DNA of 64,000 bases from Bacilli bacterium (GTDB taxonomy: Bacteria > Bacillota_I > Bacilli_A > RF39 > UBA660), in assembly GCA_028709545.1 (NCBI GenBank), contig JAQVWT010000001.1:658-64657 (forward strand). Reading direction: 5' to 3'. The translations under genes and the position numbers were made by a program. Below, in pieces: positions 5,097 through 20,839 of the stretch; the stretch's first letter is position 1; each line of letters starts with the position of its first letter. The notes below the pieces were generated by a model. That model worked only from the letters and a program-made list of their open reading frames with translations. It ran no database searches and was not told the origin of the DNA.

Positions 5097-5102
5097 CGTT
5101 AT

Positions 5103-5178: not shown

Positions 5179-5188
5179 TTTATATTAC

Positions 5189-5268: not shown

Positions 5269-5277
5269 AAAACAATC

Positions 5278-5305: not shown

Positions 5306-5365
5306 ATGATTTATTTTATTATACAAATAAATTGATAAAGTTCAAAATTGGTTTAAATTTGTTTA

Positions 5366-5397
5366 AATTCTTGTGCGTAGACAACAAGTAGACAACA
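5366..5397 (+). repeat. 32-bp arm-type direct repeat (left copy), contains tandem GTAGACAACA
   Basis: aattcttgtgcgtagacaacaagtagacaaca, identical to 35906..35937. Confidence 0.7.
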
Positions 5398-5403
5398 AAA
5401 AAA

Positions 5404-6456
5404 TCAATCTAATAAATCTATTGTTGCTATTAATTGTTCTTTCGTTTTACTATTATAAATACCATCTGTAATATCTCCACTAACAGAGTGCCCTAATATT
5501 AATTTGCGCGCAAGTCTATTAGCTCCCTTAGAATCCAAATCGGTGCTACAAGTGTGGCGACCGTCATGTGGAGTATGATCTAAATCTAGTTTAATCATTA
5601 ACTCTTTATATTTATCTAAATAATATCTATAATTCATTGCTCTTTTTGAATCATTCCATATTAGATATTCAGATTTGTTATCTTCACTAATTGTAATCCT
5701 ATTTTCAATTAAAGGTATTATTCTTTTATGTATAGGAATTATTCTATTAATACCAGCTTTTGTTTTTGATCCTGCTATTAAATATCTTTTATTTAAATTT
5801 ATTTTATCCAATTTGACATTTAATAATTCGCTAGGCCTTAATCCTGTATATATTAATATTATAACAGTATCCACATAATCCTGCTTTAAATTTTTCCATA
5901 ATATTTCTTTTTCCAATTTGCTGAAAGGCTTATGTTTTGATGATAACTCTTTTTTGCCTAATATCACAAATTCGGCATAATTCATTTTTATTGGTAATTC
6001 TTTTTGTTTAGCAATCTCAAATAATTGATTAAACATAATTTTAACATAGTTCTTAGACGTATAACTCTTATTAATCATATTATCTATTATATCTTGTATA
6101 TCAGATGTTCTGATATCAATAAAACGTTTATTATGCAATTTACTTGATTCATTATAAGCAGCATTATAATTTCCTATGCTAACAATATCTTCTCTTAATT
6201 TCATTTTTTTAAAATGATCGAAAACTCCGGTCAAAGTAATATCTAAGTTATTAAAATCATAAGGATCATTGAGATACATAATTAATGCTCTTTCGGCTAA
6301 CTGTCTTGTTTCCCAATACTTTCTTCCGTCCCATTCAATTATTTCCTTTTTTTGCTTTCCCTGATCATCCCAGTTGTTAGTTATAAAAGCAAAGAACGGG
6401 TTTCTTCTTTTACCAGATAATTTTGATGTTCCTCCAGCTCCGTTTGCTCTTTTCAT
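5404..6456 (-). CDS. int: phage integrase (tyrosine recombinase)
   Basis: TGLRPSEL (R), HDGRHTCST (HxxR), LGHS (H), TDGIY (Y): tyrosine-recombinase catalytic residues; sits next to attL. Confidence 0.85.
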   Translation of the reverse strand: MKRANGAGGTSKLSGKRRNPFFAFITNNWDDQGKQKKEIIEWDGRKYWETRQLAERALIMYLNDPYDFNNLDITLTGVFDHFKKMKLREDIVSIGNYNAAYNESSKLHNKRFIDIRTSDIQDIIDNMINKSYTSKNYVKIMFNQLFEIAKQKELPIKMNYAEFVILGKKELSSKHKPFSKLEKEILWKNLKQDYVDTVIILIYTGLRPSELLNVKLDKINLNKRYLIAGSKTKAGINRIIPIHKRIIPLIENRITISEDNKSEYLIWNDSKRAMNYRYYLDKYKELMIKLDLDHTPHDGRHTCSTDLDSKGANRLARKLILGHSVSGDITDGIYNSKTKEQLIATIDLLD

Positions 6457-6547
6457 GCTTTAAATCACTTCCTTTTTTTATAATTTTATGCTATAATTTT
6501 ATTAGAAAAACTCCTATAATTCTAGCTTGACGGTTATTTTTATATTT

Positions 6548-6586
6548 GTTTTTCTATTTTGATTGCCATTGCAGTGGCGGTCTTTT
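6548..6586 (+). terminator. hairpin plus T10 (plus-strand terminator between int and the HIRAN gene)
   Basis: gccattgcagtggc hairpin then tttttttttt. Confidence 0.35.
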
Positions 6587-6589
6587 TTT

Positions 6590-7204
6590 TTATTTCTTTT
6601 TAATTGCTAAGGTTATGTTACAGCCTCTTGTGGGTTTGTCGTACGTTCCCCCAGTTACTTCGTACTGAAGCGCTCTTATTGATGATGTTTCTTCTTTCTC
6701 AATATATCCTTTTTGATAAAATTCATTAGCAAGTTGTTCTGATAAATATCCTATCTTATAATGTCTTTCTGATGACTCATCATATTTATTATATGTTGTT
6801 AATATTGCTATTACCTCTATTGCATTATCAGAATATTTATTGTTTAAATCAGGACGTATTAAAATATTTGCTTCGTATGAATGTTCCAGTTTAAGTAAAT
6901 ATTCTTGTATTTTACCTTGAGTAACACCAACTATTTTAGTTTCAATTATTTTATGTTCATCTAAAAATTTTTGCTCTTTAATTTTATTTTCTTCTTCTTT
7001 TAAAATAATCTGTTTTTGTCTTTCTTTTAATTTTTCCTCTTCCTCAATTTTTAATTGATTGCTTTTAATTTCTTCAGAATGTATTTTCTTTTTTTTACAA
7101 CGGAAATATATTATTAACCATATTCCTAAAGTAAAATATGTCAATATAATATGACACCAAACACTTCTTTTTTTTAATATTATTTTTTCAAATTCTTGCT
7201 TCAT
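6590..7204 (-). CDS. membrane-anchored HIRAN-domain protein (repressor-operon accessory)
   Basis: N-terminal TM (WCHIILTYFTLGIWLIIYF); coiled-coil linker; C-terminal KIVGVTQ...LIRPDLNNKYSDNAIEV...KIGYLSEQLA resembles the HIRAN signature (GV..Y...L.REP.N.YD.NAI.V...IGY); start overlaps the repressor stop. Confidence 0.45.
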   Translation of the reverse strand: MKQEFEKIILKKRSVWCHIILTYFTLGIWLIIYFRCKKKKIHSEEIKSNQLKIEEEEKLKERQKQIILKEEENKIKEQKFLDEHKIIETKIVGVTQGKIQEYLLKLEHSYEANILIRPDLNNKYSDNAIEVIAILTTYNKYDESSERHYKIGYLSEQLANEFYQKGYIEKEETSSIRALQYEVTGGTYDKPTRGCNITLAIKKK

Positions 7205-7638
7205 AATTTCTCCGTATCATTTTTTTCTTTTTCTTTATCCTCATAATCAAGTATATTTATTAATTTAATTAATTTTTTAATGTCATTGTCATTTAATTTT
7301 TCTAATAAATGTAATACCTTTAATAAATTTTGATTTTCATTACTACGTTCTATTAAATTGATTATTTTTTGATCTGTAGTTAATACAGGATCAATATTAC
7401 CAAAAGTAAATTCTTGATCACTATCTAATACATTCACTAAATCTTGAATTTCTTTTCCCATAGCTTTACTTAACTGTTTAAGAACTTCATACGTAGGAGC
7501 GATGGGTTTATTTGTTCTAGGATCTACTTTTTCTAGTGCGGATATATAAGAATGGCTTAAATTAGCTTTTTCAGCAAATGCTCTTAACGACAAATTATTA
7601 TCTTTTCTGTATTGTTTTATAATTTCATTGATAGTCAT
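7201..7638 (-). CDS. CI-like phage repressor (XRE-family HTH)
   Basis: N-terminal HTH LSLRAFAEKANLSHSYISALEK; divergent to the cro-like gene across an operator-rich region. Confidence 0.75.
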   Translation of the reverse strand: MTINEIIKQYRKDNNLSLRAFAEKANLSHSYISALEKVDPRTNKPIAPTYEVLKQLSKAMGKEIQDLVNVLDSDQEFTFGNIDPVLTTDQKIINLIERSNENQNLLKVLHLLEKLNDNDIKKLIKLINILDYEDKEKEKNDTEKL

Positions 7639-7811
7639 AGAAAACCTCCATAATTATTGTACAATATATTTTACGCAAAAACAAGAAAAATATGTACAAC
7701 ATAGTTGACAAAGTTAAAAACATATGCTAAATTGTATGTACGATATGTTGTACAAAAGAACCGAACGAAAGATTATTAGGTAAAACATATCGCACAGAAG
7801 GTGGTGATAAT
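7639..7811. promoter_or_regulatory. lysis/lysogeny switch region with TTGTACAA palindromic operators
   Basis: Perfect 8-bp palindrome TTGTACAA at 7657..7664 and 7748..7755, near-copies at 7692..7700 and 7733..7743; rightward TTGACA(7705)-N17-TAAATT. Confidence 0.55.
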
Positions 7812-8015
7812 ATGAACAATGTAAAACATTATAGAGAATTAGCCGCAATGACTCAAGAAGCTTTAGCTGTAAAAGCTAGAGTCTCAAGAACTACTATTTC
7901 AAATTTAGAAAACAATATAAAAACGACTATTACTAATGAAACAATGAATAAAATAGCAAACGCGTTGAATAAAACAGTGTTTGAAATTTTTTATGAGGAA
8001 AAACCGTCAAGCTAG
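7812..8015 (+). CDS. Cro-like XRE-family HTH regulator
   Basis: MTQEALAVKARVSRTTISNLEN HTH motif; RBS GAAGGTGGTG. Confidence 0.7.
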   Translation: MNNVKHYRELAAMTQEALAVKARVSRTTISNLENNIKTTITNETMNKIANALNKTVFEIFYEEKPSS

Positions 8016-8028
8016 AAAGGAATTAATA

Positions 8029-8259
8029 ATGAAAGAATTAAAAAAATATAAAAATGTATCAGTTAAAAAAACATCAGAATTAATGGGGGTTAGTGAGCAA
8101 TACGTCAGAATTGGATTGCAAAAAGAAAGATTACCTTTTGGTACGGCTGTTCAGATAAGTGAAAAACAATGGACTTATCATATCAGCCCTGGGTTATTAG
8201 CAATTTACTTAACTGGGAAGGAAGGTGAAAACAATGAAAAACAACAAATATTTAACTAA
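8029..8259 (+). CDS. HTH DNA-binding protein (excisionase/HTH_17-like)
   Basis: KKTSELMGVSEQYVRIGLQKERLPF resembles the excisionase-type winged helix; I chose the internal ATG at 8029 over the track start 7981. Confidence 0.4.
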   Translation: MKELKKYKNVSVKKTSELMGVSEQYVRIGLQKERLPFGTAVQISEKQWTYHISPGLLAIYLTGKEGENNEKQQIFN

Positions 8260-8461
8260 CTTTAAATTTGAAAATGTAATATTTGGACTATTAGCAATAA
8301 CTTATATCTATGCAGCATCAATGCGTGCTGGCGGATTAAATAATTTTATAACTGTAATAATTCAATTAGTTTTAAGTTTTGCACTAAAACTGTTATTAGA
8401 ATACATAAGAAAAAATCCTAAAGAGTTCGCAAATTCAATACTGGAACTTTTTCAGGATTAG
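8225..8461 (+). CDS. small hydrophobic protein
   Basis: ORF track; two predicted TM segments. Confidence 0.3.
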   Translation: MKTMKNNKYLTNFKFENVIFGLLAITYIYAASMRAGGLNNFITVIIQLVLSFALKLLLEYIRKNPKEFANSILELFQD

Positions 8462-8535
8462 ATCAAGCACTTAATATAATTAAGTACTTAAATTATACCA
8501 TATTTAACAAAAAAATAGAAAGGAAAAATGAATGA

Positions 8536-9243
8536 ATGAATAAAGATCCAGCTTTTCTATTCTATAGCTCTGATTTTTTATCAGGGGTTGCAAGTTTGAC
8601 ATTCGAGGAACGAGGACAGTACATTACACTTATGTGTTTACAGCATCAGCACGGAAGATTATCCAAAAAGATAATAGATCTAAATGTACCAAATATTTCA
8701 TCTGATGTTTTATCTAAATTTTCAGTCGATAAAAACGGTTGTTTTTATAATAAAAGGTTAGAAAAAGTAATAGAAAAAAGAACTGAGTTTTCTAAAAAGC
8801 AACGAGAAAAAGCTTTAAAAAGGTGGAAAAAACAAGATACCGAAACTATGCCACAGCATAAGCCGGAGTTATACCAAACAGATGCCAAAATTATGCCTTT
8901 TTTAGAAGATGAAGATGATAATGAAAATATAAATATAAATAAAGATATAGATATAGATAATATAGTTGTATCTGTTGAAAGTAATTTTGGTAGACCTTTA
9001 GCACCTTTAGAAATTGAAGAAATTAATTCTTGGGATGATAATGATTTAACTCGATTTGCAATTAAAGTAGCAGTTGTTAATAGTGCTAAAAAAATTAGTT
9101 ATATAACTAAAACTTTATACGATTGGCAAAAAGCAGGAATTAAAACTGTAACCGAAGCACAAGAATATTTAAAAAAATTTAATAAATCAACTCAAAAAGA
9201 AGAAAAAAAGAAAAACGCTTTTGATCTTATTGATTCGTTGTAA
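8536..9243 (+). CDS. phage replisome organizer (DUF1376 N-domain + DnaD-like C-domain)
   Basis: N-terminus DPAFLFYSSDFLSGVASLTFEERGQYITLM fits the DUF1376/YdaU pattern; C-terminus ISYITKTLYDWQKAGIKT fits the DnaD/DnaB-2 YxxxIxxxW motif. Confidence 0.55.
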   Translation: MNKDPAFLFYSSDFLSGVASLTFEERGQYITLMCLQHQHGRLSKKIIDLNVPNISSDVLSKFSVDKNGCFYNKRLEKVIEKRTEFSKKQREKALKRWKKQDTETMPQHKPELYQTDAKIMPFLEDEDDNENININKDIDIDNIVVSVESNFGRPLAPLEIEEINSWDDNDLTRFAIKVAVVNSAKKISYITKTLYDWQKAGIKTVTEAQEYLKKFNKSTQKEEKKKNAFDLIDSL

Positions 9244-9249
9244 AAAAAC

Positions 9250-9789
9250 ATGAATAGAGAAGAAATAAAAACTTTATTTAAAAGAATTAAGGCAAATTAT
9301 GATATCTTTTCAGTTTCTAAAGAAAAGCTAGATGAATGGGAAAAAATCTTAAAAGGTTATACAACTTGGGGAGTTAACAGAAATTTAGACGAATACCTAC
9401 GCGAAGGAAAAGATACCCCGCCTATTGCTATTAACTTAATAAATGAATTTATTAAAGTTCCCAATCCAAACGTTAATTATAAAACCTCATGTAAAATATG
9501 TGGAAGAATAATAGACTTAGAATATACCACACACGAAAATAGATGTCGATCAATTGATTATATAACAAAAAAAACAACAAAGTATTTTCTAGATAAATTA
9601 CCAGATTTAAACGCTCAACTAAAAGAGCTGTATGATATGTCTGAAAATGCTTTTGATTTATTTTACAAAAAATTTATGAAACAACTTTTGAATCAAGACA
9701 TCGATTTAGAAGAAAAAAATCTTATAAAAAAAATATTATCAGATACGGAAAATATAAACATAGATGATGTGATAAAAGGAATATTATGA
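9250..9789 (+). CDS. hypothetical; possible helicase-loader (G39P-like) with Cys/His cluster
   Basis: N-terminus EIKTLFKRIKANYDIFSV...WEKIL resembles SPP1 G39P-type loaders; CKICGR...HENRC. Confidence 0.25.
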   Translation: MNREEIKTLFKRIKANYDIFSVSKEKLDEWEKILKGYTTWGVNRNLDEYLREGKDTPPIAINLINEFIKVPNPNVNYKTSCKICGRIIDLEYTTHENRCRSIDYITKKTTKYFLDKLPDLNAQLKELYDMSENAFDLFYKKFMKQLLNQDIDLEEKNLIKKILSDTENINIDDVIKGIL

Positions 9790-10019
9790 TAAAAATTAAA
9801 TTGATTATAGAAGCTATAGAAGTAAACTTAACCACAATTAAATATTTATGTATGATATCACTTTTAATAGTCTGTTGTCTTAATTTTAAAAAAAGAATTA
9901 AACATGATCCAGATGACGAAACAGCAAAAACATTTAGACAACAAGACTGGAAAGTTAACAGATTTAATGCAAAACACATTGTAGAAAAAAATAAGAAAAA
10001 GAAAGGAAGGAAAAAATGA
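9786..10019 (+). CDS. small membrane protein
   Basis: ORF track; central TM; start overlaps the upstream stop. Confidence 0.25.
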   Translation: MIKIKLIIEAIEVNLTTIKYLCMISLLIVCCLNFKKRIKHDPDDETAKTFRQQDWKVNRFNAKHIVEKNKKKKGRKK

Positions 10020-10510
10020 TCTTATTTAAAAAAATAATAATAATGAAATTATCTGATTATGAAACAGATAATTTATCTAAAATGAATAAAGAACTTAATT
10101 TGGTTAAACAAGTCAATACATTTAGTCAAATAAACAGTGATTTGTTGCAAAAAAACAAGGAACTAGAAAAAAAACAGAATAAAACCCAATTTGATTTAAT
10201 CCAATCAAATGAGATGAAAGCATATTATCAAGATGAATTAATAATTACAGAAAAAAGGAGACGTTCTATAGCAGCAGCAAAAGGTGGATTAATTAAATAT
10301 AACAATTCTTTAAAAAAATTAAATCAAGAATTAAACAATGTAATTAAAAGTTTAAAAAAAGATATTACAGAATTAAAAAGTGATCGCTATTTAGTTATTA
10401 AAGAACGACCGGTAAATCCACCTAAACAAGTTATGACTATCAAATCACGCAAAAAAAACATTCAAACAGAAAAGATGTTAGAGGAAAGGCGGAAAAATCG
10501 TGAAAAATAA
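10016..10510 (+). CDS. coiled-coil hypothetical protein
   Basis: ORF track; K/E/Q-rich heptad-like sequence. Confidence 0.3.
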   Translation: MILFKKIIIMKLSDYETDNLSKMNKELNLVKQVNTFSQINSDLLQKNKELEKKQNKTQFDLIQSNEMKAYYQDELIITEKRRRSIAAAKGGLIKYNNSLKKLNQELNNVIKSLKKDITELKSDRYLVIKERPVNPPKQVMTIKSRKKNIQTEKMLEERRKNREK

Positions 10511-10751
10511 ACTATCAGATGTCAATGATTATTTGTTTGAACAATTAGAGAGATTGAATGACGATGAAACCTTAGATGAGGCAAATAATTTTGAAAAAGA
10601 AATTAAGAGAGCTAGAGCAATTACTGGCGTAACTAGTCAAATTGTTCAAAATGCTAAAGTAGCATTGGATGCTAAAAAATATCTAGATGAGGCAGGGAGT
10701 GAATCTTTACCTAATATGTTTTTATTAGATAATAAAGACAACACGAAATAG
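10500..10751 (+). CDS. hypothetical protein
   Basis: ORF track; overlapping start. Confidence 0.3.
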   Translation: MKNKLSDVNDYLFEQLERLNDDETLDEANNFEKEIKRARAITGVTSQIVQNAKVALDAKKYLDEAGSESLPNMFLLDNKDNTK

Positions 10752-10755
10752 GATC

Positions 10756-11574
10756 ATGAAAGCGACATACACTTTCGAAATAAAGCAATTCATAAATCTA
10801 AATTACAAAAACATTAGTACATTAGAATTAACAAATCTAATTAATACCAAATTTAATAGTGAATTTTCAGCCTCACAAATAAAATCATATAAAAGTAACC
10901 ACAAATTAAAAAGCAATTTTAAAGATGTTAAAAACTATAATAAACTTTTTTATGATTATCACATCGACTTTATAAAAAAGCACGCAAAAGGTACTTCAAA
11001 TCAAGATTTAACCAATCTTTTTAACAACTATTTTAAATCTAGATTTACTGTTCAACAAATTAAAGCAGTAAAGCTAAGAAACAAAATAAAGAGTGGTCTA
11101 ACAGGTCACTATCAAAAAGGGAATATACCACTTAATAAAGGTAAAAAATGGGATGAATTTATGTCAAAAGAAGGGCAAGCTAATTCAAGGAAAACTACTT
11201 TTAAAAAAGGTGACAAACCGTTCAATACTGCAAAAATAATGGCAGAAGTAGAACGAGAAGATGGTTATTTATATCGAAAAATTAAAGATACAAACTATCC
11301 AGGATTAAGTAGATACAATTGGAAAGCTGTTCACCATATAATTTATGAAGAAAAACATGGAAAAATCCCCGAAAGTCACAAAATTGTTTTTGCAGATGGT
11401 AATAAAAAAAATTTTGATATCAACAATTTAATTTTAGTTTCTGATAGTCAGTTATTAATTTTAAATAAAAAAGGCTTAATTACTAGTGATCCAGAAATAA
11501 CAAAAATAGGGGTTAATACAGCTAAAGTAATAGATAAAATCAACAATTTAAATAAAAGAAAAAATAAGAGGTGA
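10756..11574 (+). CDS. HNH (HNH_3-type) homing-endonuclease-like protein with duplicated N-terminal motif
   Basis: NWKAVHHIIYEEKHGKIPESHKIVFADGNKKNFDINNLILV matches HNH_3; N-terminal repeats LTNLINTKFNSEFSASQIKSYK and LTNLFNNYFKSRFTVQQIKAVK. Confidence 0.5.
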   Translation: MKATYTFEIKQFINLNYKNISTLELTNLINTKFNSEFSASQIKSYKSNHKLKSNFKDVKNYNKLFYDYHIDFIKKHAKGTSNQDLTNLFNNYFKSRFTVQQIKAVKLRNKIKSGLTGHYQKGNIPLNKGKKWDEFMSKEGQANSRKTTFKKGDKPFNTAKIMAEVEREDGYLYRKIKDTNYPGLSRYNWKAVHHIIYEEKHGKIPESHKIVFADGNKKNFDINNLILVSDSQLLILNKKGLITSDPEITKIGVNTAKVIDKINNLNKRKNKR

Positions 11575-11578
11575 TAGA

Positions 11579-11782
11579 ATGACTAGATTTAGAGTAATCC
11601 AAGAATATGAAAAATTTTATTTTTGTGAACATATTGAAAAAGGCTACAAGGAATGTTTTGAAAAAACATTATATAAACCGCAGAATGGAATTATAACCAA
11701 GAAAAGAGATTATAACTATACAGATGAATTAGAATTGCCACTAAAAAAAGTAAATAAATCAGAAAGAGGTAGAAAATCATGA
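11579..11782 (+). CDS. hypothetical protein
   Basis: ORF track. Confidence 0.3.
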   Translation: MTRFRVIQEYEKFYFCEHIEKGYKECFEKTLYKPQNGIITKKRDYNYTDELELPLKKVNKSERGRKS

Positions 11783-11952
11783 CTAAAGAAGAACAGTTAA
11801 AAGAATTAGGATTTAGTTGTACATTTCCAGATGATCTATATTGTAATTATGAAATAGTAAATGATTATACAACAACAACATTATTCTTTATAAATAACAA
11901 TGGATCAATAAATCATAATAAAATTATAACATTAAACCATATAAAAAAATAA
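11779..11952 (+). CDS. small hypothetical ORF (~57 aa, not in the track)
   Basis: ATG overlapping the upstream TGA (ATGA); MTKEEQLKELGFSCTFPDDLYCNYEIVNDY...; end coordinate approximate. Confidence 0.2.
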   Translation: MTKEEQLKELGFSCTFPDDLYCNYEIVNDYTTTTLFFINNNGSINHNKIITLNHIKK

Positions 11953-12071
11953 CAAAAGTATTTTTGATAAAAAACATAGTTTGAAACCTTATGTTTACTG
12001 ACTTAATTAATGATTAATATAAGGCAATATTATATGTAGCGAAGATTACCAAGAAATAGAGAGGATAATGA

Positions 12072-12929
12072 ATGGAAACAAAGATTTTAATTGATAATTT
12101 AGAAGAATATATTTTAGAATTACAGGACAATGAGCTTGCTAAAAAAAGTTATTCTAAGTACAAATATGATATTAGTAAATTCATTAAATTTTTAGGAGAT
12201 AAACCTAGATTTATAAAAAATGATTATCTTGAATATATTGGTTCACTAATAAAAAAAGAGTATAAAATTAGTTCGGTCAATTCTTATATTGTTTCCATTA
12301 ATAAATATCTAATTTATTTAAAATATGAAAATTTAAAAATTAAAACTAAAAAAGTTCAAAGGAAACAATCAGTTGAAAATGTTATATCAATAATCGATTA
12401 TAAAAGATTATTAAGAATATCTAAAAAGAATGAATATCTCGATACTTATTGGATATTAAGGTTAATAGCGGGAACTGGAATTAGAGTGTCCGAAGTACAA
12501 TATTTCACAATTGAATCATTATCAGCAGCCAAAGACAAAGATAATGTAGTTATGGTTAATAATAAAGGAAAATGGCGCGAAGTCAGCATATCTACCGAAT
12601 TAATTAGAAACTTGCTTAAACACGGTCAGTCAAATGGAATAAAAAGTGGATATCTATTTTTAAAAAGAAATGATCCTACGAAACCAATAACGCCAAATGC
12701 AATTTGGAAAAGGATACAAAAAATAGCAGGTATAGCCAAAATTAATAAAAAATATGCACACCCACATTCGCTAAGGCATTTATTCGCTAAGACATATTTA
12801 TCGGTTAATCCCGGAGAGTATATGGCACTAGCTGATTTACTTGGTCATGAAGATGTTAGAACAACTGCAATCTATACGCAGGAGTCAAGAAAAGAAAAAA
12901 AAGCTAAAGTGACAGAATTAAAATTATAA
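12072..12929 (+). CDS. second tyrosine recombinase (XerC/XerD-like)
   Basis: AGTGIRVSEV (R), HPHSLRHLFA (HxxR), LLGHED (H), TAIYTQ (Y); 285 aa, Xer-sized. Confidence 0.7.
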   Translation: METKILIDNLEEYILELQDNELAKKSYSKYKYDISKFIKFLGDKPRFIKNDYLEYIGSLIKKEYKISSVNSYIVSINKYLIYLKYENLKIKTKKVQRKQSVENVISIIDYKRLLRISKKNEYLDTYWILRLIAGTGIRVSEVQYFTIESLSAAKDKDNVVMVNNKGKWREVSISTELIRNLLKHGQSNGIKSGYLFLKRNDPTKPITPNAIWKRIQKIAGIAKINKKYAHPHSLRHLFAKTYLSVNPGEYMALADLLGHEDVRTTAIYTQESRKEKKAKVTELKL

Positions 12930-12942
12930 GAAAGTAGGAAAT

Positions 12943-13530
12943 ATGGAAAAAGAAACATTAATGCAATTAAAAGAAGAATATATAGAATTATTAAAATCAA
13001 CGAAAAGAGAAGGAATAGATAACTTAATTAAATATTTAGAGAATACGGATTTTTTTACAGCGCCTGCAAGCACTAGATATCACAATAGTTTTGAAGGTGG
13101 TTTAGTTGATCATAGTATCAATGTTTACAATCAATTATTAAACAAAGTAAACTATGAATTTGAAGATAGTCAAAAATATCAACAATCTTTAATAATAGTT
13201 TCCTTGCTGCATGACATATGCAAAGCTAATTTTTATACAGTAGGAACTAAAAACGTTAAAGTCGATGGTAAATGGAAGCAAGAAGCTTATTATCAAGTTA
13301 ATGATCACTTACCATTAGGACATGGCGAAAAATCTGCGATGATTGTTTCTAAGTTTATTAATTTAAACACTGAAGAAATGATGGCGATTAGGTGGCATAT
13401 GGGATTCTCTGAACCGAAAGAAAATTATTACACTATTGGCAATGTTTTTAATAAATATAAATTAGCAGTAGCACTTCATGTTGCTGATTTAGAGGCTACA
13501 TATTATGTCGAAAATAACAATAATAAATGA
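12943..13530 (+). CDS. HD-domain phosphohydrolase
   Basis: YHNSFEGGLVDHS ... VSLLHDICK ... D (H..HD..D metal-binding motif). Confidence 0.6.
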   Translation: MEKETLMQLKEEYIELLKSTKREGIDNLIKYLENTDFFTAPASTRYHNSFEGGLVDHSINVYNQLLNKVNYEFEDSQKYQQSLIIVSLLHDICKANFYTVGTKNVKVDGKWKQEAYYQVNDHLPLGHGEKSAMIVSKFINLNTEEMMAIRWHMGFSEPKENYYTIGNVFNKYKLAVALHVADLEATYYVENNNNK

Positions 13531-13948
13531 AACTAATTTAAGTTATAAAGTTATCGGCGAAGCAATTGATTTATATCTTAAATGGTACAAATCGGAAACG
13601 TATAGTCCTGGTAAAACAGTTATAACAGAATTTAGAGAGTTAAAAACTTTTTATATACTGAAAATAAAATACTTAAAAGAAAATATTACTTTTTATATAA
13701 AAGAAAAGGAGAGCCAAATGGAAACAACAATCAATTTTGTTAAATTAGAATTAAAGCACTTAACTAAAAATATCATTGGCAAATATATAAAAGATAGCAA
13801 TGAGAATGAAATTGTTAAAGTTATAGATTATTATGATCATCCAGTAGACCCATTTAATTGTGTGCAATTAGCACAGGACTATAAAAATTATGGTAGAGAA
13901 ATTGATGATTATTTATTATTAAGAGACTTTGAAATACAGGACGAATAA
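13505..13948 (+). CDS. hypothetical protein
   Basis: ORF track. Confidence 0.3.
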   Translation: MSKITIINETNLSYKVIGEAIDLYLKWYKSETYSPGKTVITEFRELKTFYILKIKYLKENITFYIKEKESQMETTINFVKLELKHLTKNIIGKYIKDSNENEIVKVIDYYDHPVDPFNCVQLAQDYKNYGREIDDYLLLRDFEIQDE

Positions 13949-14199
13949 TGAAATATACAGATTTAACTCTTGAAGAAGCATTAGATATAAGTTTATTATT
14001 TGATCTTATATGTGATGGTAATAAAAAAGAAATTCAGATAGAACCAACAGAGCAATTTGATAAAGTAATTGAAGAGATAGAGAGTGTTATCACATCGGCT
14101 ATCGATGTATTAGCCAAAGTTTTTATAGGGCTAGGAAACACGCTAAAAGCAGCTAGTGAAACACTAAAAATTAAAGGAGATAAATATGAATCTAAATGA
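13948..14199 (+). CDS. hypothetical acidic protein
   Basis: ORF track. Confidence 0.3.
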   Translation: MKYTDLTLEEALDISLLFDLICDGNKKEIQIEPTEQFDKVIEEIESVITSAIDVLAKVFIGLGNTLKAASETLKIKGDKYESK

Positions 14200-14455
14200 A
14201 TTAATAAAGAAGTATGAAGATAAAATAAAAGAGTATGGACTAAAACCTATGTACAACTATCAAACAGGTTTGCAATGTGAAATTTATCACGAAATACTAT
14301 CTGATTTAGAACAGTTGAAAGAAAAACTTGATAAAAAAGAACTAGAGTATCATCATCAATTAAAAGATGAGGAAACTAATAATATATTAGTTAAAATAGA
14401 TAACGCTTTTGTAGACGGCAAAAGATTTGCAATAAAAGAAATAATAGGAGAGTGA
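14186..14455 (+). CDS. hypothetical protein
   Basis: ORF track. Confidence 0.3.
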   Translation: MNLNELIKKYEDKIKEYGLKPMYNYQTGLQCEIYHEILSDLEQLKEKLDKKELEYHHQLKDEETNNILVKIDNAFVDGKRFAIKEIIGE

Positions 14456-14459
14456 AAAA

Positions 14460-14906
14460 ATGGTGGAGACTGACGAATTAACAATAGCAACAGCATATGA
14501 TAAATTACTCGCAACTAATAACAAAATAGAATTATTAGAAAGATTACGACAAATTAATTCCGAGCCGCTAAAAGCAGCTAAACTAAAAGAAATATTAACT
14601 AATGGTAGTAGGAATAATAATGAACAACTGTTTTATAAAATATTAAGAGAAGATAAAAACTCAATAGAGCTAAGAGAATTGTATCAAAAAAAAGCCTCTG
14701 ATGAAGCTTACATCTTAGAAGAGATTAATAGAATGAGTTTATCCGCTCCAACTATAGCTATTGTTTTCTTAAAAGACATCCAAAAGTTTAGTTGGAAAGA
14801 AATCGCAAAAAAGCTATATGATTATTATAGCGAAAGGCAAATAAGAAATTTTTATTACGAATACAAAGAAAAGTTAAAATTAACTAATAAAATATACGGT
14901 AAATAA
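14460..14906 (+). CDS. ArpU/RinA-like late transcriptional activator (sigma region-4-like HTH)
   Basis: C-terminal FSWKEIAKKLYDYYSERQIRNFY HTH; sits just upstream of the packaging module, as ArpU-family activators do. Confidence 0.45.
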   Translation: MVETDELTIATAYDKLLATNNKIELLERLRQINSEPLKAAKLKEILTNGSRNNNEQLFYKILREDKNSIELRELYQKKASDEAYILEEINRMSLSAPTIAIVFLKDIQKFSWKEIAKKLYDYYSERQIRNFYYEYKEKLKLTNKIYGK

Positions 14907-14931
14907 TAAAAAAATCAACAGTCAAGCAAAG

Positions 14932-14960
14932 TTGCCAGTTTTTGCCAGTTTAGCTATGCT
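14932..14960 (+). promoter_or_regulatory. candidate sigma70 promoter (TTGCCA-N17-TATGCT) at the start of the GC-rich non-coding segment
   Basis: Hexamers and spacing read directly from the sequence. Confidence 0.3.
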
Positions 14961-15428
14961 ACAATAACTATGATGAGATACTTATACATAGATCGATATA
15001 AGATTTCATTACCCAAAACAATTGGACATAAATTAAATCTTTCTTAGGAACAGTTTATTCCATCAAGTAGTGACTGATAGACTACTTGATATACTAGGTT
15101 CAAAAACCGTACTGTCTAATATGAGCATATAGAATAATCCTATATCAGGTAGAATTCAGGCGAATATGATTAAATGCTGAAAAACAGCCTATGTTTTATG
15201 AGTGGTGGTGTATGGGAAACACGGTTAAAGATAACTGATAAGCAAGGATATCCATTGAGCTTATCCCAAAGGTGTAAGCCCTTATCTACTCAAACAAAAA
15301 AATATGCTCACAGAGGTTCTGGCCGAGTAAATCCGCTAGCGAGCAATCAATTACGCAACCTCAATAATAGGCATGATGAGTGGAGCTAGCCGTCCACCAA
15401 CTTAAAACTCTTTAATTAGAGTTTTTTT
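14961..15428 (+). ncRNA. candidate structured non-coding RNA of unknown class (~470 nt)
   Basis: 533-bp gap between tightly packed genes; GC content visibly above the ~28% background; the only ORF (15174..15389) is R/S/G-rich and atypical for this genome; promoter upstream and strong terminator at the 3' end; many local inverted repeats. Confidence 0.35.
15404..15428 (+). terminator. rho-independent terminator
   Basis: aaaactct-ttaatt-agagtttt hairpin followed by T7; the HNH gene RBS follows immediately. Confidence 0.6.
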
Positions 15429-15439
15429 CATGAGGTAAT

Positions 15440-15769
15440 ATGGGGAATAAAAATAAAATAATTAGATTACAACTTATTCAAATTTATGGAGAAATTTGTA
15501 TGCTCGGAGAACCACTATCTATTGAAAATTATATTACTTTACACCATTTAATAAAAAAAGAACACAAAGGAGCTACCAGCATTAAGAATGGTGCTCTGTT
15601 AAGCAAAATTATGCATGAATATTTACATTACATAGAATGTTGGTATATTGGCCATTATCACTATATTAATGATTATTTAAGATATTACAAAGAAACCGAA
15701 GATCCCAGTGAAAAAGATAAAATGAATTGTTATATCAAGAAATTAAACAAAATAAATAGAAAGGTTTGA
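15440..15769 (+). CDS. HNH endonuclease (packaging-associated type)
   Basis: CMLGEP...TLHHLIKKEHKGATSIKNGALLSKIMHEYLH is an HNH motif. Confidence 0.55.
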   Translation: MGNKNKIIRLQLIQIYGEICMLGEPLSIENYITLHHLIKKEHKGATSIKNGALLSKIMHEYLHYIECWYIGHYHYINDYLRYYKETEDPSEKDKMNCYIKKLNKINRKV

Positions 15770-15773
15770 TCGA

Positions 15774-16694
15774 ATGAAACATATATGTTTTTATTATTAT
15801 CATATTAACATTATTGGCGGCGTTGAAATAGCGATACTGAATCTAATAAAATTATTAAGTAAAGAGTATAAAATAACTATAGCTTATACCAAGCAAGACA
15901 GTAGCTTAGACATGTTGTTAAGATTAAATAAATATGCTGATATAGTAAATGTCAAATATCAAAAAATCGCATGTGATACAGCTGTTTTCTGCTCTATTTA
16001 TTGTGAAACTCCAAAAAATATAAAAGCTAATAAATATGTTAGATGGTTGCATGGCAATCTTAAAGAAATAGGTTATAATTTAACTAAAGAAGATTTTATA
16101 AATGACTACGTAACGGTAGGTAAGGAATGCCAAAAACAATTAAAAGAAGTTACAGAAGTGGAATCGAATTTAATATATAATGAACTTGATCCTGAAATAC
16201 ATAAAAAAGCTAAAGAAACAATAAATATAATAAAAAAACCTTTAACATTAGTCACAGTATCAAGAATTTCCATAGAAAAAGGTTTTGAAAGAATGTTAAA
16301 ACTCGCCAGATTATTAAAAGAAAAAAAAATAGATTATATTTGGTATATAATCGGATGCAGTTATGACAAGGCTTATGAGGCAAAAATTAAAGATACTAGT
16401 CCGAAAGAATTTATCTATTTAGGAAAATTGGATAATCCGTTCCCATATATGAAAGAATCGGATTTTTTAGTGCAATTAAGCAGTTATGAAAGCCAAGGGT
16501 TATCGGTAGTCGAATCGTTAGTTTTAGGAACACCAGTAATAGTAACTAAATGGAAAGCAGTTAATGAAGTCGTTACAGATAAAGTAAATGGCTATATATT
16601 AGATATGGATTTTAATGATATTCCTGAACTTCAAAAATTAGTGTTCAGATATGAATATAAAAGTAATTATGAAAGGTGGAAAGAAATATTATGA
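15774..16694 (+). CDS. GT-B fold glycosyltransferase (family 1/4-like)
   Basis: N-terminal IIGGVEIAILNL; C-terminal E-x7-E motif ESQGLSVVESLVLGTPVI typical of retaining GT4 enzymes. Confidence 0.6.
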   Translation: MKHICFYYYHINIIGGVEIAILNLIKLLSKEYKITIAYTKQDSSLDMLLRLNKYADIVNVKYQKIACDTAVFCSIYCETPKNIKANKYVRWLHGNLKEIGYNLTKEDFINDYVTVGKECQKQLKEVTEVESNLIYNELDPEIHKKAKETINIIKKPLTLVTVSRISIEKGFERMLKLARLLKEKKIDYIWYIIGCSYDKAYEAKIKDTSPKEFIYLGKLDNPFPYMKESDFLVQLSSYESQGLSVVESLVLGTPVIVTKWKAVNEVVTDKVNGYILDMDFNDIPELQKLVFRYEYKSNYERWKEIL

Positions 16695-16942
16695 AAGAAG
16701 TATTAATTAGATCGGTAAGTAATTATCATGATATTGAATTATCAAAAGAAAAGAAGTCAAAAACAAAAGTGCTTAGAAATGGTAAAGAGATAGAAACATA
16801 TGAAATACAACCAAATGATGAGTATTTAGTATCAAGAGCTAGAGCAGAAGTAATAGTTGGAAAAAACAAAGCCATAATTATTGATATGCCTAAGCAAGAA
16901 GAAACTAAAACAAAATTAATAAAGAAAGTAGTGAAGAAATAA
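16676..16942 (+). CDS. hypothetical protein
   Basis: ORF track; overlaps the GT stop. Confidence 0.3.
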   Translation: MERNIMKEVLIRSVSNYHDIELSKEKKSKTKVLRNGKEIETYEIQPNDEYLVSRARAEVIVGKNKAIIIDMPKQEETKTKLIKKVVKK

Positions 16943-17018
16943 TGCAAGGAATAATAACCACTTTAATAATAGTTTTTGGTTTATGTTATATATCAACAAT
17001 ATCTAATAGTAAAAGAAA

Positions 17019-17336
17019 ATGACACTAGAAAGAATTAAACAACTTATTAGAGAAGATAAAATTATTTTATTTTATAAAAGTAAAGCTTGGCGTATTAAAA
17101 AAAATGAAATAAGAAAAAGAGACGGATACGAATGCCAAGAATGTAAGAAACAAGGAGGGTTAACAACTATACAACAAGCTAAACTAGATGTGCATCATGT
17201 TAAAGGACTAAAGGATTATCCGGAACTAGCGTTTGTTAATAGTAATTTAGTAACTGTATGTGTTAATCATCACAATATATTAGATGGAAGAATTAAACCA
17301 AAGAAAAATAAATTTATTAATGAGGAAAGATGGTAA
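17019..17336 (+). CDS. HNH endonuclease
   Basis: CQECKK...HHVKGLKDYPELAFVNSNLVTVCVNHHNILDG: CxxC plus HH and N...H. Confidence 0.6.
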   Translation: MTLERIKQLIREDKIILFYKSKAWRIKKNEIRKRDGYECQECKKQGGLTTIQQAKLDVHHVKGLKDYPELAFVNSNLVTVCVNHHNILDGRIKPKKNKFINEERW

Positions 17337-17545
17337 ATATGAAATTAAAAAAATATCAGTTAGTTAGTATATTAGAACAATGTAAATTGAGAGGATTAAC
17401 AACCATAGATGAGATACTAAATGAATTAAAAGTATTTAAAGATATGGATGTTATAGTCGAATCATCGAAAGATAAAGAAATTAAAAGATATAAAAAATCA
17501 GGCGTTATTGATTCTCCAAACATAAGAAGAATTCTTAATAAATGA
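17330..17545 (+). CDS. hypothetical protein
   Basis: ORF track. Confidence 0.3.
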   Translation: MVNMKLKKYQLVSILEQCKLRGLTTIDEILNELKVFKDMDVIVESSKDKEIKRYKKSGVIDSPNIRRILNK

Positions 17546-17548
17546 TAT

Positions 17549-17601
17549 AGCCCCCATTCAAAAATTTTGACGATTTTTAGAAAAGTCAGGAAACGGGGGC
17601 T
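17549..17601 (+). promoter_or_regulatory. GC-rich long-range hairpin upstream of terS (possible cos/pac or late-promoter element)
   Basis: agccccc ... gggggct inverted repeat enclosing about 40 nt, unusual in this AT-rich context. Confidence 0.25.
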
Positions 17602-17654
17602 GGGTAATAAAAACGAGTAAATAAAATAATAATCACATAAGGGTGGTGGTATAA

Positions 17655-18008
17655 ATGGCTAAAAAGAAAAGGTTATATCCTAAAAAATTATATGATCAAA
17701 TTAAAACCGATCTATTAAATCAATTAGAGTTAAATGGGGTGGCCGGCAAACATTATGAAAATATGATTGAAGATTATATGCAGTTTTGGCACACCAAAAT
17801 GTTGTTGCAAGAAGATATTAAATTACGAGGAGTAAATGTCGAATACAATAATGGCGGTGGTCAAAGCGGCTTTAAAAGAAATGATAGTGTTACCGATTTA
17901 GTTAAAGTTAATTCCCAAATGTTAAAAATATTATCAGAGTTAAATTTAAAACCATCTAAGGAAGGTGGTAAGGATGACCCCAAACCAACCGAAGACGATT
18001 ATTATTAA
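17655..18008 (+). CDS. terS: terminase small subunit (P27-family-like)
   Basis: ~117 aa, immediately upstream of terL; MAKKKRLYPKKLYD...NNGGGQSGFKRNDSV pattern. Confidence 0.5.
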   Translation: MAKKKRLYPKKLYDQIKTDLLNQLELNGVAGKHYENMIEDYMQFWHTKMLLQEDIKLRGVNVEYNNGGGQSGFKRNDSVTDLVKVNSQMLKILSELNLKPSKEGGKDDPKPTEDDYY

Positions 18009-19671
18009 AGAAGTAGAAGAATACTTAAATTGGTGTTATGAAAATCCAAATAAAATAAATAAAAAAAGATGGTTGCTGATAAAAAATATAGTTGAACCTA
18101 CATTAAGGAGAGCTGATATTTTTTTTGATGAAGAAAAATATTATAAATGTATTGATTATTGTGAAAAATGGTATTATCCATTATTTCCGTATCAAAAATT
18201 TATATATGCTTTTGTTTTTATGTTTAAAAATAAAAATTTTTCTTTTGAAAATAAGATCCCATTATTTCATAAATTTATAATTGAAATGGGTCGAGGAAAT
18301 GGTAAAGATGGATTTATCGCTCCTTTATGTAATTTTTTGCAAACTCCGATGTACGGAATTAAAAATTATAATATTGATATAGTAGCAACTAGTGAAAGTC
18401 AATCTAAAGACACTTTTTTGGTAGTTCATGATATGATGACTTCTAATATTAAAAAAATGAAAAAACTATTCTATATAAGTTTAGAGTTGATAATGAACTT
18501 GTTTACAAAATCGAGATTAAGATACAATACTTCAAACGCAAAAACTAAGGACGGCAAAAAAGTTGGTGCTATAGTATTTAACGAATATCACGCTTATGAA
18601 AATTACGAACAAATATCAGTTTTTGAAAGTGCGGGAGGTAAAGTGCCTCATTTTAGGATATTTATAATAACTACTCAAGGTAACGTTCGAGAAGGTCCGT
18701 TAGATGATGAATTAGAATATTGTGCCTCTATATTAAACGGTGAAGATAACAATCTTGGGGTTTTTCCTTTTTTGTGCGAATTAGATGATCTTAAAGAAGT
18801 TGATAACCATGAGATGTGGGTAAAGGCTAACCCTAGTATAGAATATATGCCTAATTTACTTGAAGTTATTAAACAACAATATCAAGAGCAAAAAGAAAGG
18901 CCGCAAAAAAGATTTGAGTTTTTGACAAAAAGAATGAATGTTCCGTCAAGAGATGAAACTACTTGTGTAGCAAGTTGGGAAAATATTCTTGCCACCAACC
19001 AAGAAATTCCTGATTTAAAAGGAATGAGTTGTTTAGGGGGAATTGACTATGCAAGTATGAATGATTTTTGTGCTGTTGGTTTATTATTTAAGCAAAACGG
19101 CAAACGTTACTGGATGCATCATTCTTTCATTTGCAGCAACAGTATTCATTTAAAAATGGTAAATAAAAAATTAAAAATTGATTTAGCTGTTGAAAAAGGC
19201 TTAGCAACAATGGTCAATACAAATAGTATTAACCCAGAAGTAGTTGTTAGTTGGTTTGTTCAGCAATCCAAAAAATATAATATTTTAAAAATTGCTTGCG
19301 ATGATTACCGATTTGCATTATTAAAAGAAGCTTTTGAAAAAGAAGGATTTTATGAAAAATGTAAAAAATACCCTAATGGAAGAATAATAGTTGTTAGGAG
19401 TGGACCTATTACTCATAATCGAGTAGCTACTATTATTGATGATATGTTTTATAATCAAACTTTAGTTTATGGTGATGATATGTTGATGCGCTGGTACACA
19501 AATAATACTGCTGTTAAAGTTGACGGTAAGGGAAATAAAACATATGAAAAAATAGAATATCAAACAAGAAAAAATGATGGTTTCATGGCATTAGTTCATG
19601 TTATGAGTATAGATAAAGAATTACCAACTATAAAAAGTAGTGGGAAATTAATGAGGCCTATAATAGGCTAG
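17974..19671 (+). CDS. terL: terminase large subunit
   Basis: ~565 aa; ATPase N-domain then nuclease domain; position between terS and portal; start set at the ATG with RBS GAAGGTGG (track GTG at 17965). Confidence 0.75.
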   Translation: MTPNQPKTIIIKEVEEYLNWCYENPNKINKKRWLLIKNIVEPTLRRADIFFDEEKYYKCIDYCEKWYYPLFPYQKFIYAFVFMFKNKNFSFENKIPLFHKFIIEMGRGNGKDGFIAPLCNFLQTPMYGIKNYNIDIVATSESQSKDTFLVVHDMMTSNIKKMKKLFYISLELIMNLFTKSRLRYNTSNAKTKDGKKVGAIVFNEYHAYENYEQISVFESAGGKVPHFRIFIITTQGNVREGPLDDELEYCASILNGEDNNLGVFPFLCELDDLKEVDNHEMWVKANPSIEYMPNLLEVIKQQYQEQKERPQKRFEFLTKRMNVPSRDETTCVASWENILATNQEIPDLKGMSCLGGIDYASMNDFCAVGLLFKQNGKRYWMHHSFICSNSIHLKMVNKKLKIDLAVEKGLATMVNTNSINPEVVVSWFVQQSKKYNILKIACDDYRFALLKEAFEKEGFYEKCKKYPNGRIIVVRSGPITHNRVATIIDDMFYNQTLVYGDDMLMRWYTNNTAVKVDGKGNKTYEKIEYQTRKNDGFMALVHVMSIDKELPTIKSSGKLMRPIIG

Positions 19672-19681
19672 AAAGGATAAA

Positions 19682-20839
19682 ATGAATATAATAGATTGGA
19701 TAAAATGGGCTTTTGGAAAAAAGGATTCCATAACATTAAATAGTTGTGGTTTTGGGGAGATAGCAACAGAAATAGCTTATAAAGAAGTTGCACTGAATAA
19801 AGTTGTTAATATGATTGCCAATTCTTTATGTAATTGTGAATTCAAAACATTTAAAGAAAACAATACAATAAAAGAAAATAATTATTACTCTTTTAATATC
19901 GAACCAAACCCAAATCAAAACGCTAGTGAGTTCAGACAAAAGCTAATATATCAGTTAATTACAGAAAATGAATGTTTAATAATTCAAGATAATGAAAATT
20001 TTTATGTAGCAGATAGCTTTGAAAAAGATATTAAGACACTTAAAAAAAGTGCCTTTTATAATGTGAAAATTGATGATTTAATAATGAAAAAAAGTTATTC
20101 ATCAAGCGATGTTCTTTATTTGACATTAAATAATAAGGCTATGAGTGAATACGTGACTAATTTGTATAGCTCTTATGGAGCACTCATTAGTAAAGGTGTA
20201 GATGATTATAAGAAAAAAAATGGAACAAAAGGGAAGTTAGATATTTCTTCAATTTTTAGTCAAAATTTTAATGATGAAGATGGAGAATCTGACCAAGAAA
20301 AAATGCAAAAATATATATCAAAAACATTTAAGACTTATTTCACAGCAGTTAATGCTGTTTTACCATTAGAGGAGGGTTTAGATTTCACTCAATTTGAAAA
20401 TAAAATTGATATTACAATTGATGAAATTAATAAAGGAATTGACAGTGCGTTCAATTATATAGCAAGTGCTTTCGGACTTCCAGAAGGATTTTTTAGAGGG
20501 AACTTGGCGGAAATAACTGAACAACGCAACGACTTTTTAAGTTTCGTTGTAAAACCAATTGCAAAACTTATTGAGAGAGAGATAAACAGAAAGTTATACG
20601 GTAAAGAATTATATTTAAAAGGCTCATTTTTGAAAGTAGATACTAACAGAATTAAGCAAGTTAATATATTTGATGATGCTGGAAGCTTAGACGTATTAAC
20701 TAGGATAGGTTATTCTCATAACGATTTACAAGAATTATTAGAAGAACCGATAGTTAATGCAGCATGGGCTAACAAGCATTACATTACCAAAAACTATATG
20801 GACACTCAGGAAGGTGGTGATAATAATGGTAAAAAATAA
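19682..20839 (+). CDS. portal protein (HK97-family-like)
   Basis: 385 aa directly after terL and before the ClpP-like protease. Confidence 0.7.
   Translation: MNIIDWIKWAFGKKDSITLNSCGFGEIATEIAYKEVALNKVVNMIANSLCNCEFKTFKENNTIKENNYYSFNIEPNPNQNASEFRQKLIYQLITENECLIIQDNENFYVADSFEKDIKTLKKSAFYNVKIDDLIMKKSYSSSDVLYLTLNNKAMSEYVTNLYSSYGALISKGVDDYKKKNGTKGKLDISSIFSQNFNDEDGESDQEKMQKYISKTFKTYFTAVNAVLPLEEGLDFTQFENKIDITIDEINKGIDSAFNYIASAFGLPEGFFRGNLAEITEQRNDFLSFVVKPIAKLIEREINRKLYGKELYLKGSFLKVDTNRIKQVNIFDDAGSLDVLTRIGYSHNDLQELLEEPIVNAAWANKHYITKNYMDTQEGGDNNGKK

Follow-up and report, generated by a model that had tools for sequence, protein, structure and literature searches.

An accessory Xer-like tyrosine recombinase in a Bacilli prophage and the lox/dif-like dyad associated with its family

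The window analysed is a 64,000-nt stretch of contig JAQVWT010000001.1 (GenBank assembly GCA_028709545.1, positions 658 to 64,657, forward strand) from a Bacilli bacterium of the RF39 lineage (UBA660), and has a guanine plus cytosine (GC) content of about 27%. It contains a prophage insert of 30.7 kb, which splits a tRNA array. In the early region of this prophage, an accessory Xer-type tyrosine recombinase of 285 amino acids (aa) is encoded at 12072..12929 on the plus strand. The gene is preceded by an intergenic control region of 119 bp (11953..12071, plus strand), which starts right after the end of the upstream open reading frame (ORF) at 11952, and is followed by a gene for a stand-alone YhaM-type HD-domain protein of 195 aa (12943..13530, plus strand). 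The recombinase, its family and a candidate target site in the gap are the subject of this report.

The recombinase matched Pfam Phage_integrase (PF00589) at 2e-22, with a weak N-terminal SAM-like domain, and aligned over its full length with XerA of Pyrococcus (4a8e, E 7e-23), the best relative of solved structure, and with XerD of Escherichia coli. Residues R138, K167, H232, R235, H259, and Y268 align with R148, K172, H244, R247, H270, and Y279 of XerD, respectively; the R-K-H-R-H/W-Y set and the Phage_integrase-type C-terminal domain of the tyrosine recombinase superfamily are both present. An earlier note, made from the sequence alone, had described a 285-aa XerC/D-like recombinase with all catalytic residues at this place, and its coordinates were confirmed exactly, with the six catalytic residues listed above in place. 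The ORF is full length and has a good ribosome-binding site (RBS). The top-scoring family model was that of XerA (NF040815), with 121.9 bits against a cut-off of 220. The NCBIfam equivalogs of XerD and XerC gave 95.7 and 89 bits (cut-offs 329.6 and 335, respectively), and XerS (NF003462) gave 53 bits against 267, with a length of 285 aa against about 356 aa. The integron integrase model TIGR02249 aligned with the C-terminal stretch alone (56 bits against 265), and no integron cassette array is present. Because no curated threshold for Xer proteins, integron integrases or invertases was reached, the protein is, on its sequence, of Xer-like build and outside every named Xer family. XerC and XerD are two paralogues that work at a chromosomal dif site under the control of FtsK; here there is one Xer-like gene of this type, and it lies inside the prophage. 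A lambda-type integrase was considered and rejected: the protein has only 285 aa with a SAM-like N-domain alone, its gene lies 6.8 kb inside the prophage, and the integrase adjacent to the attachment (att) site is the product of 5404..6456.

The nearest relative of the recombinase is 50% identical. In a large protein collection 290 relatives were found at E<=1e-10, and 260 loci encoding them were found in IMG/VR. Across 120 homologues, reaching down to 35% identity, R138, K167, H232, R235, and Y268 never vary, while at H259 one sequence has Q and the other 119 have H; catalysis is therefore under selection. No close relatives were found in 50,697 deposited phage genomes, which gave partial matches at 39% identity or less alone, or on plasmids, where the matches were distant hsdS-type invertases. 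The homologues are encoded on the lytic-gene strand in the phage interior, near replication genes and some kb ahead of terminase. The phages bearing them also have an att-adjacent integrase, of the tyrosine type in loci L009 and L170; in L007 this integrase is a large serine recombinase. Where 8 kb or more of upstream flank was available (34 loci), 27 loci have a second tyrosine or serine integrase on the opposite strand. The family member is therefore not the integrase of those phages. The family is one of conserved, uncharacterised accessory recombinases of temperate Firmicutes siphophages; no paper was found that assigns a function to accessory recombinase genes of this kind. On two viral contigs, IMGVR_UViG_3300009120_000072 (L017/L077) and IMGVR_UViG_3300033565_000087 (L062/L070), two different Xer-like genes lie about 37 kb apart. 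They could reflect prophages in tandem or a concatemer produced by assembly.

Common to the upstream gaps of the nearest relatives is a dyad located about 40 nt ahead of the start codon. Its consensus is (T)GCAATATAA-[T/C]AT-NNN-GG-TTATATTGC(A), i.e., GCAATATAA-N8-TTATATTGC; it reads GCAACATAA-TATGTAGG-TTATGTTGC in L007 and GCAATATAA-TATGTAGT-TAATGTTGC in L004. The dyad is 26-28 bp long and consists of inverted arms of 9-11 bp and an asymmetric centre of 6-8 bp with a variable middle. Core sites of tyrosine recombinases have a 13-8-13 (loxP) or 11-6-11 (dif) arrangement, and the geometry of the dyad, as predicted from its letters, is that of such core sites. An RNA hairpin or stem was also considered and rejected: arm position 5 varies uncompensated in several lineages, which argues for a protein-binding DNA site over an RNA stem. 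The dyad sequence was not found in any paper searched.

For comparison of the layout, 25 diverse sites were anchored on the dyad. In 5' to 3' order, the first part is an inverted or direct A/T repeat (GAAAAAT...ATTTTT), and the second a box with the consensus AAAAA[C/G]TATTT, which 24 of the 25 sites have about 70 nt upstream of the dyad. An A-run and a hairpin that contains GC come next. The dyad follows after a further 15-25 nt of spacer, and the RBS and start codon lie about 10 nt beyond it. The sequence of the hairpin differs among phages and the pairing is kept (covariation), as in the two copies of L025 (CTCTAATCC/GGATTAGAG and CTCTAATTC/GAATTAGAG); read on the minus strand, it is a hairpin followed by a T-run. 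A -10-like TATAAT lies inside the left arm of the dyad. The control region is conserved over about 110 nt and directly precedes an operon, in most cases the one that includes the recombinase, and by its sequence it looks like a promoter/operator region with a recombinase site built in. No Rfam family matched the relatives' element or the window gap. In six loci, the dyad lies just 3' of the recombinase gene. In L170, a 422-aa ParB_N-domain protein (4746..6014) overlaps the start of the recombinase gene, and there is no dyad upstream.

A protein-blind scan of IMG/VR for the perfect dyad gave 39 matches, 19 of which adjoin the Xer-like gene. The other 20 are followed by a short tyrosine recombinase of 216 aa, found in 19 loci, with its own R..K..HxxR..H..Y intact. 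As a control, the arms with any spacer were searched in 596 Gb of genomes; 44 matches were obtained, those with random spacers at background frequency. About 36 of the 44 have random spacers, occur in unrelated taxa without a recombinase nearby and represent chance background, while the testable matches with a TAT..GG spacer have the Xer-like gene adjacent. According to BLAST clustering, one of the two recombinases is encoded in 68 of the 69 dyad-bearing loci, far ahead of any other protein cluster. The possibility that these loci share some different regulator was examined through protein clusters and Pfam and was rejected; the 140 proteins that neighbour the dyad at 14 diverse loci include no Pfam family with more than 3 members. 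The Xer-like family thus has a specific and statistically supported association with the lox/dif-like dyad in a conserved control region, the dyad lying next to the gene or not far from it at many diverse loci.

These counts bear on the explanation that the dyad region is a phage promoter/terminator module for host RNA polymerase or another factor, with the recombinase merely as first gene and its target elsewhere, at a host site or in another resident element. The multi-part promoter-like architecture with its minus-strand terminator-like hairpin would fit such a module, and so would the occurrence of the same dyad before two recombinases just 27% identical. A bare promoter module does not, however, account for the fact that every testable dyad with the characteristic spacer adjoins a tyrosine recombinase and random-spacer dyads do not, nor for the arm-spacer-arm geometry of a tyrosine-recombinase core site. 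Moreover, no other protein is shared at the dyad loci, and in the 596-Gb scan the dyad was not a host-genome motif outside prophages. On balance we consider this explanation rather unlikely, even if the lack of an adjacent dyad in half of the family, and the degenerate and polymorphic dyad beside an intact protein in the window (see below), speak for it.

The Xer-like and the 216-aa recombinases are not orthologous: they are 27% identical in the catalytic domain, and the 216-aa type is without the N-terminal domain. In sister phages one type replaces the other, and the exchanged segment runs exactly from the dyad's end to where the following ORF starts. Short tyrosine recombinases of 180-216 aa occupy the slot of the Xer-like gene in L092-L123 (e.g., 7918..8565 in L105) and in L125 (5986..6528; Streptococcus phage IPP63), and the short recombinase matches 218 deposited phage genomes, including phages of Streptococcus, C. 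difficile, Bacillus, Thermus, and Listeria. Prophages of streptococci, clostridia, and others carry short 'site-specific recombinase' genes (LambdaSa2-type; IPP and Javan names). With these the present family shares the same slot between replication and packaging genes and intact catalytic residues, and the short recombinases of one lineage stand behind the identical dyad; it is set apart from them by the low identity of the catalytic domains and by the N-terminal domain that the short ones lack. In pneumophage IPP63 (L125), an element of about 55 nt precedes both the recombinase gene (5808..5860) and the HNH-terminase genes (6884..6935). It consists of a GAGAC..GTCTC hairpin followed by ..TATTATGATAGCAT.

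In the window, the control region has the same order of parts as the 24 other dyad-anchored sites and is partly degenerate. The upstream box AAAAGTATTTTT (11954..11965, plus strand) follows the family consensus, about 70 nt ahead of the dyad, and no other copy of it occurs between genes of the prophage. Where relatives have the covarying GC hairpin, there is a weak AT hairpin, AAACATA-N11-TATGTTT (11972..11996). The candidate core site is GCAATATTA-TATGTAGC-GAAGATTAC (12024..12049, plus strand), with 8/9 positions kept in the left arm, a conserved spacer and 5/9 in the right arm. Left arm and spacer (12024..12039) match the relatives' pattern GCAAYATWATATGTAG exactly, with 0 matches in 100 shuffles. 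The suggestion of the earlier note that the gap could hold the recombination site is borne out for the left arm and spacer but not for the right arm, which is degenerate. The right arm has decayed likewise in L012 and L172. In one of four assemblies (L002), a 2-bp TA deletion lies inside the candidate site at 12032..12033 and leaves the TATTAT hexamer intact. Consensus promoter and terminator scans of the gap gave nothing. A protelomerase (TelN/TelK) was rejected as an identity of the recombinase, as the protein has only 285 aa, the spacer TATGTAGC is non-palindromic and the prophage is integrated rather than linear.

It might be supposed that the module is decaying in this phage, the enzyme being intact, the site lost and no function left here. 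The 5/9 right arm, the hairpin whose stability lies within that of shuffles (z = +0.8), the 2-bp indel of the sister strain and the similar right-arm decay in L012 and L172 are all in keeping with decay. Set against them are the full-length ORF with all catalytic residues and a good RBS, and the conserved upstream box; moreover, both XerS/difSL and dif include asymmetric sites that work despite one weak arm. Decay to loss of function is distinctly improbable in our view.

A second site was sought in the prophage by the relatives' patterns, a position weight matrix (PWM), blastn-short of the whole gap and a search for the box, and the original site alone was found. A search for direct and inverted repeats over 4500..37500 revealed no partner repeat, and no long repeats flank the recombinase and HD genes. 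The nearest relatives too have a single site, and in the window's clade there is one site per genome. The minus-strand half-match TCGACATAA-TATGTAGC at 13495..13511 was examined as a partner and rejected: by chance alone a window should contain about 0.5 of such matches, the right arm is missing, and the stretch codes for the conserved EATY motif at the C-terminal end of HD proteins; relatives have no counterpart of the match. Tyrosine invertases and shufflon recombinases (FimB/E, Rci, PsrA/CreX) were rejected as well, as there is no credible inverted partner and the assemblies are all collinear.

The same half-match would be needed if recombinase and HD gene formed an invertase or the integrase of a nested element, flipping or excising the segment from the gap site to about 13495..13511. 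It does share the 8-nt spacer of the candidate site, and one NCBI contig ends 58 nt past it. Apart from its chance expectation, its missing right arm and its place in the EATY codons, this explanation meets with relatives that have no second inverted site, with three other assemblies that are collinear, with a polymorphism patch in the HD gene (12985..13443) that is not bounded by candidate sites, and with an HD gene never linked to the recombinase elsewhere. It is already largely refuted and scarcely probable at all. The proposals of inversion, switching or a nested element in the earlier note are likewise not supported: inversion or switching finds no partner repeat in the prophage and no rearranged assembly among the three others, a nested element has no partner repeat either and no HD gene beside any homologue examined, and the suggested search for a direct or inverted partner of the candidate site in the prophage came out empty.

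The HD phosphohydrolase named in that note as the downstream gene was confirmed. The ORF matched PHROG 28876 'metal-dependent phosphohydrolase' at 1e-42, its Pfam HD match being below cut-off, and the confidently predicted structure (predicted local distance difference test score, pLDDT, 89.8) had the HD domain of YhaM as best Foldseek hit (9h3f, probability 1.00, template modelling score, TM, 0.60). The OB-fold domain of YhaM, a 3'-5' exoribonuclease, is absent. Residues H47, H57, H90-D91, H127, H152, and D182 are invariant in 37 homologues, and the protein has both the HD fold and the H...HD...H...D ligands of YhaM-type HD phosphohydrolases. This protein family has more than 8000 homologues at 55-65% identity. 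No HD gene lies next to the recombinase at any homologue examined, so that a functional link between the two is not supported; the HD gene is unlinked cargo, an independent passenger. Compared with L001, it has 60 single-nucleotide polymorphisms (SNPs) in 458 nt (12985..13443), and L002 is a mosaic of both alleles; the 8 kb upstream of the patch are almost identical between the strains. The pattern indicates, as read from the alignments, allelic replacement by homologous recombination within the gene and not site-specific movement, and it resembles the outcome of gene conversion with other HD genes. That the HD gene is a cassette mobilised by the recombinase was rejected, the gene being unlinked in all homologous loci and the SNP patch lying inside the gene and not bounded by sites. 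The 147-aa downstream ORF differs from the relatives' neighbour.

Several lineages have two co-oriented copies of the whole control element whose spacers differ: TATATAGG and CATCTTGG in L025, TATTATGG and CATTCTGG in L054, and CATTTTGG and TGTATAGG in L072. In L029, copy 1 heads an operon with the recombinase as first gene and DnaD/DnaC-like replication genes within, and copy 2 heads the block of small genes, HNH, TerS, and TerL. Such copies are relevant to the possibility that the recombinase is a regulator, which binds the dyads overlapping the -10 in its own operon and, in some phages, in the packaging/late operon, and so times expression, with catalysis secondary or part of a synapsis-dependent switch. 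The dyad is always co-oriented, about 10 nt ahead of the RBS, with TATAAT in its left arm, and second copies head the small-genes-HNH-TerS-TerL block. The short recombinase of IPP63 is likewise first behind a 55-nt element that is repeated before HNH-terminase genes, and the -10-bearing left arm is better kept than the right one in the window, L012, and L172. On the other hand, the near-complete conservation of catalytic residues in 120 homologues is needless for a pure DNA binder, spacers starting with C yield TATAAC, a poor -10, and there is no conserved -35 element. No precedent for a tyrosine recombinase as phage late regulator was found in the literature, and we know of none. We consider a regulatory role of this kind unlikely.

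The explanation to which we give most credence, although with confidence a little short of even, is a single-site system of the Cre/Xer type acting between copies of the phage genome, with autoregulation. The recombinase would be an active simple tyrosine enzyme, with core-binding and catalytic domains and no arm-binding domain, and its cognate DNA would be the lox/dif-like dyad of 26-28 bp. A dimer would bind the site, which overlaps the -10-like TATAAT, and in this way would probably limit its own transcription. Two phage genome copies would be synapsed at their identical sites and exchange strands there, and the exchange would interconvert monomeric and multimeric circles or form cointegrates; copies of the site that differ in spacer could not react with one another. 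As there is one site per genome in the clade, the reaction could not invert or delete phage DNA. With the decayed right arm of the site in the window, the activity here may be weak or need cooperative binding. In favour of this explanation are the intact and conserved catalytic residues, the occurrence of the gene inside phages with another integrase, the tie of the dyad to recombinases as the one kind of protein common to its loci, the single site per genome in the window's clade, and the exact half-site of the window at the homologous position. Among the roles listed in the earlier note, dimer resolution, as a single-site role, may still be considered the best guess.

Several observations weigh against a single-site system. 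No recombination product was seen anywhere. The full dyad in the window scored 8.1 bits with the PWM, which is within the range of shuffles, its right arm being degenerate, and the 2-bp deletion in the sister strain suggests relaxed constraint on the site here. About half of the family, counted among its more distant and GC-richer members, has no dyad within 260 nt of the gene. In some relatives, second copies in the same orientation, always about 10 nt before the RBS and at two operon heads, resemble a promoter or operator more than a pure crossover site. Recombinases with such different catalytic domains (27% identity) behind an identical dyad would be unexpected if each must recognise the dyad.

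A broader scheme was also considered, in which the dyad regions are heterospecific lox-like sites at operon or module boundaries, common to many otherwise unrelated temperate phages. The recombinase of either type would swap modules between co-resident genomes, as a natural form of recombinase-mediated cassette exchange, or a site-site synapse would activate the embedded promoters only after replication, in a cer/Rcd-like manner. The scheme is improbable in our estimation. If it were true, module exchange or a synapsis switch would couple recombination to the early-to-late transition.

Several known systems resemble the single-site system proposed here. Cre/loxP of phage P1 (also Dre/rox and VCre) is a simple phage-encoded recombinase with one site per genome, active in cyclisation or dimer resolution between copies. 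The present pair is likewise phage-encoded and has a nearby candidate site of inverted arms with an asymmetric 8-bp spacer, single in the genome, but the arms are 9-11 instead of 13 bp, and the P1 prophage is a plasmid, while the present phage uses an integrase of its own to integrate. Cre was not among the matches of solved structure at E<=1e-5. The sites cer and psi consist of an XerCD core with about 180 bp of one-sided accessory DNA, and a promoter (Pcer/Rcd) lies inside cer; they act with host XerCD and host accessory proteins. About 100 nt of one-sided conserved DNA at the core and a promoter-like element overlapping the site give the dyad region what may be an architectural resemblance to them, though not their reliance on host XerCD and host accessory proteins. 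Archaeal XerA/dif provides the best relative both in sequence and in solved structure, with the same two-domain size, and XerA acts without a partner. The score was, however, below the family cut-off, and XerA has an archaeal chromosomal function with an 11-6-11 dif. In XerS/difSL, a dif-like site is located directly beside the gene of a lone recombinase (PMC2731167). With this system of streptococci and lactococci, and with XerH/difH of epsilon-proteobacteria, the phage pair shares a lone Xer-like recombinase, a gene-linked candidate site and asymmetric arms, one of them stronger. Those systems are chromosomal and lie at the replication terminus, while the present one is found in phages, with another site sequence and with two copies in some relatives. 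Tyroviruses, which are temperate Bacillus phages, encode the extra Xer-like recombinases gp19, gp50, and gp175, one with an adjacent 11-6-11 inverted-repeat site (PMC9703825). They are likewise additional Xer-like recombinases of temperate phages, but the Tyroviruses are phages of 160-170 kb, the genome positions are different, and no close sequence relation was found in searches.

The prophage is bounded by two copies of tRNA-Lys(ttt), at 5189..5264 and 35945..36022. The attL core (5215..5268, plus strand) is a 54-nt exact direct repeat covering the 3' half of the tRNA gene, and the attR core (35973..36026, plus strand) is its second copy (repeat family D3). The primary tyrosine integrase of 350 aa is encoded at 5404..6456 on the minus strand and adjoins attL; the prophage with a separate att-adjacent integrase assumed in the earlier note was thus found as described. 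From attL, the gene order is integrase, cI-like helix-turn-helix protein (minus strand), cro-like protein (plus strand), DnaD-like initiator, helicase loader, HNH_3 endonuclease, two small ORFs, the 119-bp gap, the recombinase, the HD ORF, several small ORFs, a 530-nt non-coding stretch, a glycosyltransferase, HNH, TerS (Terminase_4), TerL, portal, and the remaining structural genes. The same prophage is present in GCA_028680795.1. Three assemblies besides the window's own carry it, and all of them are collinear with the window. Just inside the prophage ends, a 52-nt direct repeat (D9; 87% identical) at 5346..5397 and 35886..35937 includes TTCTTGTGCGTAGACAACAAGTAGACAACA; the primary integrase probably uses these repeats as arm-type binding sites. 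The HNH_3 homing-type endonuclease is encoded at 10756..11574 in the early region, and a group-1 glycosyltransferase at 15774..16694, between early and packaging genes. The stretch at 14907..15439, flanked by the small early ORFs on one side and by an HNH-like ORF with the glycosyltransferase on the other, has 530 nt without ORFs and is GC-richer than its surroundings. Its predicted fold is somewhat more stable than that of shuffles (z = -2.3), no Rfam family matches it, and it may be a structured RNA of a new type. A perfect (AAGC) x 17.8 tetranucleotide tract lies at 32188..32258, directly after a 650-aa tail-region ORF (30231..32183) and ahead of the ORF at 32330..32707. Variation of its length by slippage could alter the expression of a host-range gene.

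The recombinase gene in the window is an ordinary, somewhat degenerate member of a widespread phage recombinase/site module. Extra tyrosine recombinases in the lytic modules of temperate phages have repeatedly been noted in genome papers and left unexplained, as in Tyroviruses (PMC9703825) and for the streptococcal 'site-specific recombinase'. The analysis provides a defined family, a candidate site of 26-28 bp in a region of about 110 nt, and testable predictions on binding, recombination, and transcription. Two unrelated recombinases in the same slot represent a natural experiment, and if the site is functional, the module would also offer a new and compact Cre/lox-type pair of recombinase and target.

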